5,109 bases of DNA from a virus (Duplodnaviria; Heunggongvirae; Uroviricota; Caudoviricetes): IMG/VR virus record IMGVR_UViG_2695420889_000019; one strand, 5' to 3'. The translations under genes and the position numbers were made by a program. Below, in pieces: positions 3,513 through 4,122 of this stretch (position 1 is its first letter; each line of letters begins with the position of its first letter). Below the pieces are notes generated by a model. That model was given only the letters and a program-made list of their open reading frames with translations, was not told where the DNA came from and did no database searches.

Positions 3513-3541
3513 AGACTCTCAAGCGGAACACTAAAAATCTC

Positions 3542-3547
3542 ATTATA
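3542..3547 (-). promoter_or_regulatory. Candidate sigma70 -10 hexamer (perfect TATAAT on the minus strand) for the 178-aa gene
   Basis: Plus-strand ATTATA at 3542-3547 is TATAAT on the minus strand, about 30 nt upstream of the start codon at 3512. No convincing -35 hexamer at 16-18 bp spacing (closest CCATGC), so this is tentative. Confidence 0.3.
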
Positions 3548-4059
3548 TCTCATTCTGATGCCCGGCATGGATTACACCTTGAAATGAAAACACCGGGTTC
3601 CCAATAGGCTCCCACAAAGTGTATAACTACTTGTTTTTCAAAAACGGTACATCCTATCGAGCATTGGTGCAACGCTAAACCGACCACTCCAGTGAACGTC
3701 AGTTTTTTCAGGCATTGCGCTGGTTTGGTTGATTTTTTGCATTTCAGAATTACCGTGCATTTTCAAATGTAGAGATTATTTTATCGATATATCATTGAGT
3801 TATGTTATTCAGCATCACTGTTCAGGAGGCTCAATAGCGGGGTACTATACCATAACAACAGGAAGCGCCTGTCTCATTGCAAAAGAAAATTGAGATCCTC
3901 TCAAGGCATGAAGTTCTCACGAAGTGATGGAAATAATCTTATTAGCCGTTAGCTTTGTTAAGGCCAATGATAAACAATCTAAGTTCGACGATAAATAAAA
4001 AATCACACATTAAACTCCGGTGATATCTCTCCCTGCTAATAGCATTGATAGAGAAAAAA

Positions 4060-4086
4060 GAACCCAATAAATATTGGGTCCTTTTA
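4060..4086 (-). terminator. Rho-independent terminator downstream of the 328-aa gene (also hairpin-plus-T-run on the plus strand)
   Basis: Stem ACCCAAT (4062-4068), loop AAAT, stem ATTGGGT (4073-4079). On the minus strand it is followed by TTTTTTC (rc of 4053-4059); on the plus strand by CCTTTTAT. About 40 bp past the stop at 4123. Confidence 0.6.
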
Positions 4087-4122
4087 TATAATGCCTTCCA
4101 TACTATCGAAGAACTTCACATA

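Follow-up and report, generated by a model that had tools for sequence, protein, structure and literature searches.

The DNA analyzed here, referred to below as the window, is a stretch of 5,109 nucleotides from a virus record of the Caudoviricetes (IMGVR_UViG_2695420889_000019); a window coordinate equals the coordinate in locus L001 minus 4488. It carries a PrtN-family/excisionase-like gene on the plus strand and, on the minus strand, a 178-aa gene and a 328-aa gene encoding a DUF2713 protein, and the 610 bp between the last two hold no annotated complete gene (Table 1). Pfam, NCBIfam and PDB searches with the 178-aa protein returned no match, and it is assigned only to PHROG 4350, a family without known function. 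The protein in the same slot of another element is not related to it; a counterpart of 177 aa is encoded next to attP in the free phage mEp460. The DUF2713 gene adjoins zur, as in K-12, and has a GC content of 34.7%.

The initial annotation described the 610 bp as an A+T-rich, ORF-free spacer. The A+T-richness is mild, at 38.2% GC vs 42.6% for the whole window, and comes mostly from positions 3761-4122 (35.4% GC). As for ORFs, the spacer contains three, of 54 aa (3729-3893, plus strand), 45 aa (3550-3687, minus strand) and 42 aa (3638-3766, minus strand), and the 42-aa one is a truncated dusA. The RefSeq annotation has a partial tRNA-dihydrouridine synthase (dusA) pseudogene of 105 nt at 3656-3760 on the minus strand; in translation, the frame stays open past the junction until a stop codon in phage DNA (3638-3640), which makes an ORF of 40 aa. 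The short motifs listed in the initial annotation are present in the sequence, namely a minus-strand TATAAT (3542-3547), the palindrome ATGCCCGGCAT (3558-3568) and T-tract/TTTTCA elements at 3633-3645, 3702-3711 and 3759-3766. Two of the three T-tracts fall inside dusA, one in its codons and one in its start region.

Positions 3761-4122 correspond to the yjbM-dusA intergenic region of K-12 MG1655, which is of equal length (362 bp) and has nothing annotated inside. It should hold the dusA promoter, and the candidate elements on the minus strand are a -10-like TAAAAT (3778-3783) and a promoter-scan hit, TTAACA-17-GATTAT (3961-3933).

Table 1. Features of the spacer and the adjoining genes, in window coordinates; functional assignments are predicted.
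Feature	Position	Strand	Remark
PrtN-family/excisionase-like prophage gene	2250..2558	+	Pfam PyocinActivator, E = 4e-23; PHROG 1300 'excisionase', E = 8e-40
178-aa phage cargo gene	2976..3512	-	PHROG 4350, unknown function
Phage-specific leader/upstream region of the 178-aa cargo gene	3513..3595	-	Homologous only to mEp460 and prophage relatives
SD-like GAGAG (CTCTC on the plus strand)	3516-3520	-	Precedes the start of the 178-aa gene
-10-like TATAAT	3542-3547	-	Kept in mEp460
Palindrome ATGCCCGGCAT	3558-3568		Not conserved in mEp460
attP-derived arm, 61 bp, integrase-distal side	3596..3656	.	Conserved across dusA-targeting elements
Putative arm-type integrase site GGTTCCCA	3596-3603
Putative arm-type integrase site GGCTCCCA	3607-3614
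IHF-like match AAACAAGTAGTTA, one mismatch	3624-3636	-	Chance-level in the window
A/T palindrome GTTTTTCAAAAAC	3633-3645		Inside the conserved arm
Core-proximal ATCCTA	3651-3656
8-bp crossover core TCGAGCAT (plus strand)	3657..3664		dusA nt 97-104 (minus strand)
Orphaned host dusA 5' end, 35 codons MHGNSEMQKINQTSAMPEKTDVHWSGRFSVAPMLD	3657..3760	-	Aligns to K-12 dusA up to the core
Native yjbM-dusA intergenic region, 362 bp	3761..4122	-	Spacing as in K-12 MG1655
Intrinsic terminator of the DUF2713 (yjbL/M) gene	4056..4085	-	13-bp stem, then T run; 37 nt past the stop codon
328-aa DUF2713 gene, chromosomal, unsplit yjbL-yjbM	4123..5109	-	Pfam DUF2713, E = 5e-157

The prophage boundary and the split of dusA

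In a megablast search of 5426 complete E. coli genomes, the 610-bp spacer was found at 100% identity in E. coli O145:H28 RM12581 and RM13514, and the whole window is 100% identical to RM12581. The whole junction (a match to at least 80% of the query) is carried by 659 genomes. Positions 3657-4122 (145-610 of the query) alone are matched in 4378 of the 5426, where they lie under an intact dusA. Aligned with K-12, the minus strand of the window is identical through ...GCACCAATGCTCGA and then diverges sharply and, as an origin from an attachment junction requires, the sequence right of 3657 is contiguous with dusA 5' DNA in uninterrupted genomes. Phage DNA within the spacer is confined to 3513-3656, and 3657-4122 is chromosomal, so that the spacer does not lie within a compact prophage as had been proposed.

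The order of the RefSeq neighbors leads to the same place. On the prophage side are early genes for a methyltransferase, a 3'-5' exonuclease, a PrtN-family protein, a 57-aa protein and the 177/178-aa hypothetical protein; past the 178-aa gene follow the partial dusA pseudogene, the DUF2713 protein, zur, yjbJ, dinF and lexA. The latter genes keep the chromosomal order of K-12, zur-yjbL-yjbM-dusA, and therefore the window crosses the boundary between prophage and chromosome and the 328-aa gene is chromosomal. A tRNA/tmRNA scan for an attachment site of the tRNA type found none. Taken as a whole, the spacer is very probably the integrase-distal attachment junction of an mEp460-like lambdoid prophage of about 46.6 kb that lies inside the 5' end of dusA. 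The label attR used here for this junction follows the naming in phage 1720a-02.

At the far end of the prophage, 46.6 kb away, a 365-aa tyrosine integrase (Pfam Phage_integrase) is encoded 88 bp from, and divergent to, a full-length dusA of 345 aa. The first ~100 nt of this dusA are only ~80% identical to K-12, and from the core onward the gene is K-12-like; 35 phage-derived codons (MHDNHETLKINQTSVMPEKTGVYWNSRFSIAPMLD) are joined in frame at the core, and the product is annotated as a 345-aa DusA. Read in the orientation of the window, attP of the free phage mEp460 is GGTACATCCTA-TCGAGCAT-AGGAGCAATGC and attB of K-12 is GTCCGTCCAG-TCGAGCAT-TGGTGCAACGC, while the window junction reads GGTACATCCTA-TCGAGCAT-TGGTGCAACGC and the int-side junction GTCCGTCCAG-TCGAGCAT-GGGAGCAATGC. 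The core is identical in all four sites, and the breakpoint is exact in three- and four-way alignments. When the two junctions were recombined in silico, the resulting attP agreed with mEp460 at 314 of 333 positions and the resulting attB with K-12 at 169 of 171.

Both ends of the prophage carry the identical 8-bp core with similar flanks; the 21-bp repeats of Farrugia et al. (2015) were compared via the attB of Citrobacter rodentium only, whose published string is identical to K-12 attB at 17 of 19 positions. Relatives of the integrase in other genera occupy the same kind of position, with 34 of 52 loci adjoining a divergent dusA (genera include Kosakonia, Xenorhabdus, Proteus, Serratia, Vibrio and Shewanella).

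Comparison of these sequences shows that the phage attP core TCGAGCAT recombined with the identical 8 bp located ~100 bp into dusA and thereby split the gene; the event was very probably site-specific recombination by a tyrosine recombinase. Left orphaned in the window, and joined to the 61-bp phage arm, are the first 35 codons of dusA along with the promoter and intergenic DNA that originally preceded them. The remaining ~310 codons are now found at a distance of 46.6 kb, where the phage has provided a look-alike 5' end and a promoter beside int. Since these codons have gained a phage-borne 5' end, a full-length DusA is still encoded. In the reverse direction, Int and the PrtN-family excisionase may recombine the window junction with the one at the int side, so that the phage DNA leaves as a circle and dusA returns to the K-12 type; the PrtN-family gene at 2250-2558 is the probable directionality factor acting on the window junction. 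In RM12581, the prophage has an IS600 insertion and frameshifted portal and J genes and may be defective for particle production, while int and the excisionase-like gene are intact.

For annotation, the spacer should read as a prophage boundary made of attR, a dusA 5' remnant and host intergenic DNA. The prophage then ends at 3656/3657, and the 328-aa gene is reassigned to the chromosome. The junction type is already well described and the finding is an ordinary one. Biologically, it is a further example of the known dusA-targeting strategy, in which an element repairs the gene that it splits.

The conserved arm beside the core

The phage arm was aligned in six elements: the window junction, the phages mEp460 and 1720a-02, and three further dusA junctions of E. 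coli. A 69-bp block (3596-3664) is almost invariant in 6/6 of them, and conservation begins sharply at 3596. Left of this point only mEp460 aligns, and the four other dusA-targeting elements are unrelated there. The three other E. coli junctions have unrelated cargo beside them, coding for a YafO toxin, SocA-type proteins and a Panacea-domain protein.

Within the arm, two GGYTCCCA repeats lie 11 bp apart. The motif GGYTCCCR occurs three times in the window, vs 0.27 expected, and two of the three copies are in the arm. The 342-bp attP of mEp460 has five copies, three of them on the int side, and there is none elsewhere in 7.1 kb. The int-proximal arm keeps its layout, two direct 7-mers 12 bp apart and one inverted copy, in 21 of 28 relatives of the integrase, and the 7-mer itself varies with the integrase lineage (GGTTCCC, GCACCCC, GTACACC, GGACACC, GGTATCC or GGGTCAC). 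Lineage-varying 7-mers in a fixed layout are the pattern expected of protein-binding sites that co-evolve with the integrase. The GGYTCCCA repeats are putative arm-type sites for the N-terminal domain of the integrase, and the A/T-rich palindrome and the IHF-like segment may bend the arm.

A match to the IHF consensus with one mismatch (3624-3636) lies inside the invariant block. Statistically, it cannot be told apart from chance: the whole window has 12 such matches vs 8.7 expected. A putative architecture of arm sites whose motif changes with the integrase lineage is of modest fresh value and alters current understanding little.

Other explanations for the spacer

The reading of the spacer as a prophage junction has to be weighed against regulatory functions, several of them raised in the initial annotation. 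One of these takes most of the spacer to be promoter and regulatory sequence of the 178-aa gene, whose minus-strand transcription would use the perfect TATAAT at 3547-3542. This hexamer lies ~30 nt upstream of the start codon of the 178-aa gene and is conserved in mEp460, and an SD-like GAGAG precedes the start codon. However, no acceptable -35 accompanies it, a promoter scan made no sigma-70-type call there, and TATAAT is found three times in the window where 4.1 are expected, so that the hexamer was rejected as a full promoter. The palindrome was likewise rejected as an operator; mEp460, 98% identical here, has TAAGCCGCGTAT instead. The motifs listed in the initial annotation do not exceed chance. 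Moreover, 527 of the 610 bp belong to the att arm, to the fragment of dusA or to intergenic DNA of the host. A promoter of the 178-aa gene is compatible with the attachment junction for 3513-3595 only, and to these 83 bp the earlier proposal of a regulatory region can still apply; as an account of the spacer as a whole, it is possible but doubtful.

A related explanation places the promoter in the host. The orphaned dusA promoter would read through the 40-codon dusA' ORF and the arm into the 178-aa and 57-aa cargo genes, so that a host promoter would drive these morons in the lysogen, and the dusA-mimic promoter of the phage would drive them in the free phage. The cargo genes are co-oriented with dusA' in 5/5 distinct cargo sets examined, and the minus strand from 3760 to 3512 has no terminator-like site, the first strong one being at 2587-2562, after the 57-aa gene. 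This remains reasoning from orientation, and five of five would arise by chance in about 3% of cases at best among elements that are related. Furthermore, each cargo set has 80-250 bp with room for a promoter of its own, and Rho-dependent termination is possible in the 125-nt untranslated gap. Both the capture of the host promoter and its consequence for expression are, on this balance, rather unlikely.

It is unlikely that the A+T-rich DNA of the spacer serves as a silencing target bound by H-NS/StpA. DNA of such composition is often bound by H-NS, and the GC contents of 3761-4122 and of the DUF2713 gene are well below those typical of E. coli. No work linking yjbM to H-NS came up in a literature search, and such binding, even if true, would be a property of the host yjbLM-dusA region in most E. 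coli and not of the prophage.

The proposal that the spacer encodes a small regulatory RNA is highly improbable. It could draw on the length of the stretch without an annotated gene and on sRNA-17, which was reported from a prophage of the mEp460 kind in E. coli K1 (PMC7719688). When placed by the primers of the supplement and by sequence, sRNA-17 maps to L001 1466-1526, between a repressor-like gene and yfdP and ~3 kb beyond the left end of the window, and it was discarded as an RNA of the spacer. A search of the whole window against Rfam at E<=1 gave sub-threshold matches driven by terminators and nothing else, with no match in 3513-4038. The sole match in the spacer region, AbsR28 at 4039-4092, covers a terminator only, scores 23.6 bits vs a gathering score of 50 and is driven by the DUF2713 terminator at 4056-4085. 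On both strands, shuffled sequence folds just as stably as the spacer (z = -0.10, -0.20 and +0.06). The initial annotation had counted a lack of conservation in related islands against its reading. Conservation is present in the near-invariant 69-bp block, but that block is conserved as DNA common to attP and attR, as a recombination site predicts, and not as an RNA. Partly supported in its details, the initial annotation missed the main identity of the spacer, an attR that includes the 5' end orphaned from dusA and the native DNA between yjbM and dusA.

Two dusA alleles and comparison with known elements

Upstream of the att core, E. coli has two alleles, an observation at this site that is new and stands beside the junction itself. 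The K-12-type allele consists of yjbL/M, the 362-bp spacer and a 35-codon dusA 5' end, with 1.7 kb of extra A+T-rich DNA. In the short allele, found in 1123 genomes, zur is directly beside dusA, which has a 21-codon 5' end. The two are 97% identical from dusA nt ~89 onward; homology is lost exactly at the att core and is regained only near zur. Judged by eye in an alignment, the K-12-type 5' end shares ~80-85% identity with the 5' ends supplied by elements in mEp460, a Kosakonia element and a Salmonella diarizonae locus, the last of which retains a 30-aa int remnant. Since the alleles diverge at the att core and the K-12 end resembles those of elements, at least one allele has gained its 5' end by recombination there.

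Of the two, the K-12-type allele is more probably the derived one, but two results speak against a firm direction of change: a tblastn search of the K-12-type yjbLM/intergenic region with 27 integrases for an int remnant gave only chance-level matches, and dusA of C. rodentium, with a presumed native 5' end, has a long N-terminal extension too. It is an evenly balanced question whether the host half of the spacer is the fossil attL side of an older dusA element, fixed in ~80% of E. coli including K-12; the proposed fossil would take in the A+T-rich intergenic region of 362 bp together with the 5' end of dusA on one side and the DUF2713 yjbL/M gene on the other. If this is true, the window records two successive integrations at one 8-bp core, and dusA elements permanently rewrite the promoter and the N-terminus of a conserved tRNA-modification gene. 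An element-derived 5' region of the K-12-type dusA is a hint of modest fresh value, by which current understanding is little altered.

The junction itself, an attachment site of an mEp460-like prophage in dusA, belongs to a known kind. Integrases that insert islands and prophages in the dusA 5' end, which is replaced by element-borne sequence, were described by Farrugia et al. (2015; PMC4482086), whose table includes E. coli phage lysogens. These elements have a 'remnant dusA 5' end' at the far junction and semi-conserved repeats on both sides, and a prtN homologue is present in 60 of 94 dusA-specific islands (PMC4482086). The window prophage agrees with this family, that of the dusA-associated integrases (DAI), in its insertion in the dusA 5' end, the divergent adjacent tyrosine integrase, the replacement 5' end and promoter, the dusA remnant at the far junction and the prtN homologue, and there is no essential difference between them. 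Arm-type repeats, IHF sites and an excisionase role of PrtN do not figure in that work (PMC4482086) and are suggested here for the window junction.

Two phages are close matches. Free phage mEp460 (JQ182728) is 98% identical to window 2562-3680 and has the same 57-aa and 177-aa genes. Its order of 177-aa gene, arm, core, dusA mimic and int is that of an unrecombined attP, whereas the window has host dusA past the core. The Stx2 phage 1720a-02 (Phi-stx2dact) enters dusA at 100 bp with a 7-base core and attB TCCAGTCGAGCATGGGAGC, and its Phi-dusA' restores the reading frame (Balasubramanian et al., 2019; PMC6328086). In its attR, in Citrobacter rodentium, the 7-base core lies inside the window core TCGAGCAT, and its 69-bp arm and core are identical to window 3596-3664. 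It differs from the window prophage in the cargo adjacent to the arm, in the rest of the phage and in the host, and the part of the RM12581 prophage that was examined showed no stx genes.

A more distant comparison is with phage lambda. The attP and attR of lambda have arm-type Int sites and IHF bends and involve Xis. The window prophage is lambda-like in having short repeats on both arms, away from a short crossover core. It shares with lambda, too, a tyrosine integrase, a small gene resembling an excisionase gene and a bendable segment rich in A/T. Unlike lambda, it has attP between the excisionase-like gene and int, which places these genes at opposite ends of the prophage, and its target lies inside a protein-coding gene that is repaired by the mimic 5' end of the phage.

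The dusA 5' end and its two alleles

In E. coli, the region preceding the att core of dusA occurs as two alleles, and the homology between them ends exactly at the core. In the K-12-type allele, 362 bp of intergenic DNA separate yjbL/M from a dusA 5' end of 35 codons, whereas in the short allele, found in 1123 of 5426 genomes, zur directly adjoins dusA. Because the dusA 5' end of the K-12 type is similar to the 5' ends supplied by the elements, it may be the fossil of an older dusA element. Codons 1-15 of the K-12-type gene (MHGNSEMQKINQTSA) are absent from the short allele, in which dusA begins at the equivalent of Met16. 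The annotated ATG of the K-12 type is not preceded by an SD-like sequence, and a -10-like TAAAAT lies only 17 nt upstream of this ATG. The real start of dusA may be Met16.

The neighboring DUF2713 gene is one 328-aa ORF in the window. K-12 has two ORFs in its place, yjbL (84 aa) and yjbM (235 aa), and in two other strains the gene is annotated as frameshifted. Therefore, the yjbL/yjbM pair of K-12 looks like a broken gene.

Arms, cargo and decay of dusA elements

The cargo of the dusA elements lies in a slot bounded by the PrtN-family gene and the att arm and differs from element to element: a YafO toxin, SocA/Panacea-domain proteins, a glycosyltransferase, or unknown proteins of 178 and 57 aa. 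In every element compared, the cargo has the orientation of the orphan dusA fragment. A strong bidirectional intrinsic terminator with a GC-rich 11-bp stem sits between the convergent PrtN-family and 57-aa genes, and it explains most of the window's weak Rfam matches.

In 21 of the 28 relatives, the int-proximal arm keeps the same arrangement, two direct 7-mers that lie 12 bp apart and one inverted copy, and the motif sequence varies with the integrase lineage. These 7-mers look like co-evolving, putative arm-type sites, which also overlap the divergent promoter region of int and Phi-dusA'. In Salmonella enterica subsp. diarizonae CCUG 30040T, only 30 codons of int are left beside a dusA with an element-type 5' end, and in Xenorhabdus kozodoii a decayed int lies between dusA and zur; both loci are dusA elements decaying in place.

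Coordinates of the features compared
Feature	Sequence	Position	Strand
Cargo slot	window	2606-3512	
Cargo slots, other dusA elements	L006; L007; L008	1377-2367; 573-2245; 1106-2307	
Terminator	window	2562-2587	
Alleles upstream of att core	window; K-12 locus (L002); short-allele locus (L061)	3657-5109; 3004-4770; 1380-1720	
dusA codons 1-15, K-12 type	window	3715-3760	-
Short-allele region compared with codons 1-15	L061	1496-1558	
int-proximal arm repeats, ~100 bp upstream of each int	loci of integrase relatives (L009-L060); L004	2900-3000; 4233-4267	
Decayed-int loci, S. diarizonae and X. kozodoii	L059; L060	1878-3090; 1891-5805	
DUF2713 gene	window	4123-5109	-
yjbL/yjbM	L002	3322-4307	
173-aa and methyltransferase ORFs	window	358-879; 843-1364	+
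RefSeq methyltransferase start	window	876	
IS600 insertion, frameshifted genes, effector genes	RM12581 locus (L001); other prophage region (L003)	2989-4855; 18508-20930, 29750-32736, 35218-36967	
sRNA-17 partial homologue	L001	1466-1526	

State of the RM12581 prophage

The prophage is probably defective, since its HD-hydrolase gene is interrupted by IS600 and its portal and host-specificity J genes are frameshifted. nleG7 and espS, both type III effector genes, lie near its int end; espS is frameshifted. In the window, the methyltransferase ORF overlaps at its start with an ORF of 173 aa; in RefSeq, only the first 45 codons of the latter are annotated, as a partial pseudogene, and the methyltransferase starts further downstream. 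Outside the window, yfdP and the cI-like repressor gene of the same prophage flank a partial homologue of sRNA-17, a published ArcA-regulated sRNA of E. coli K1 (PMC7719688).
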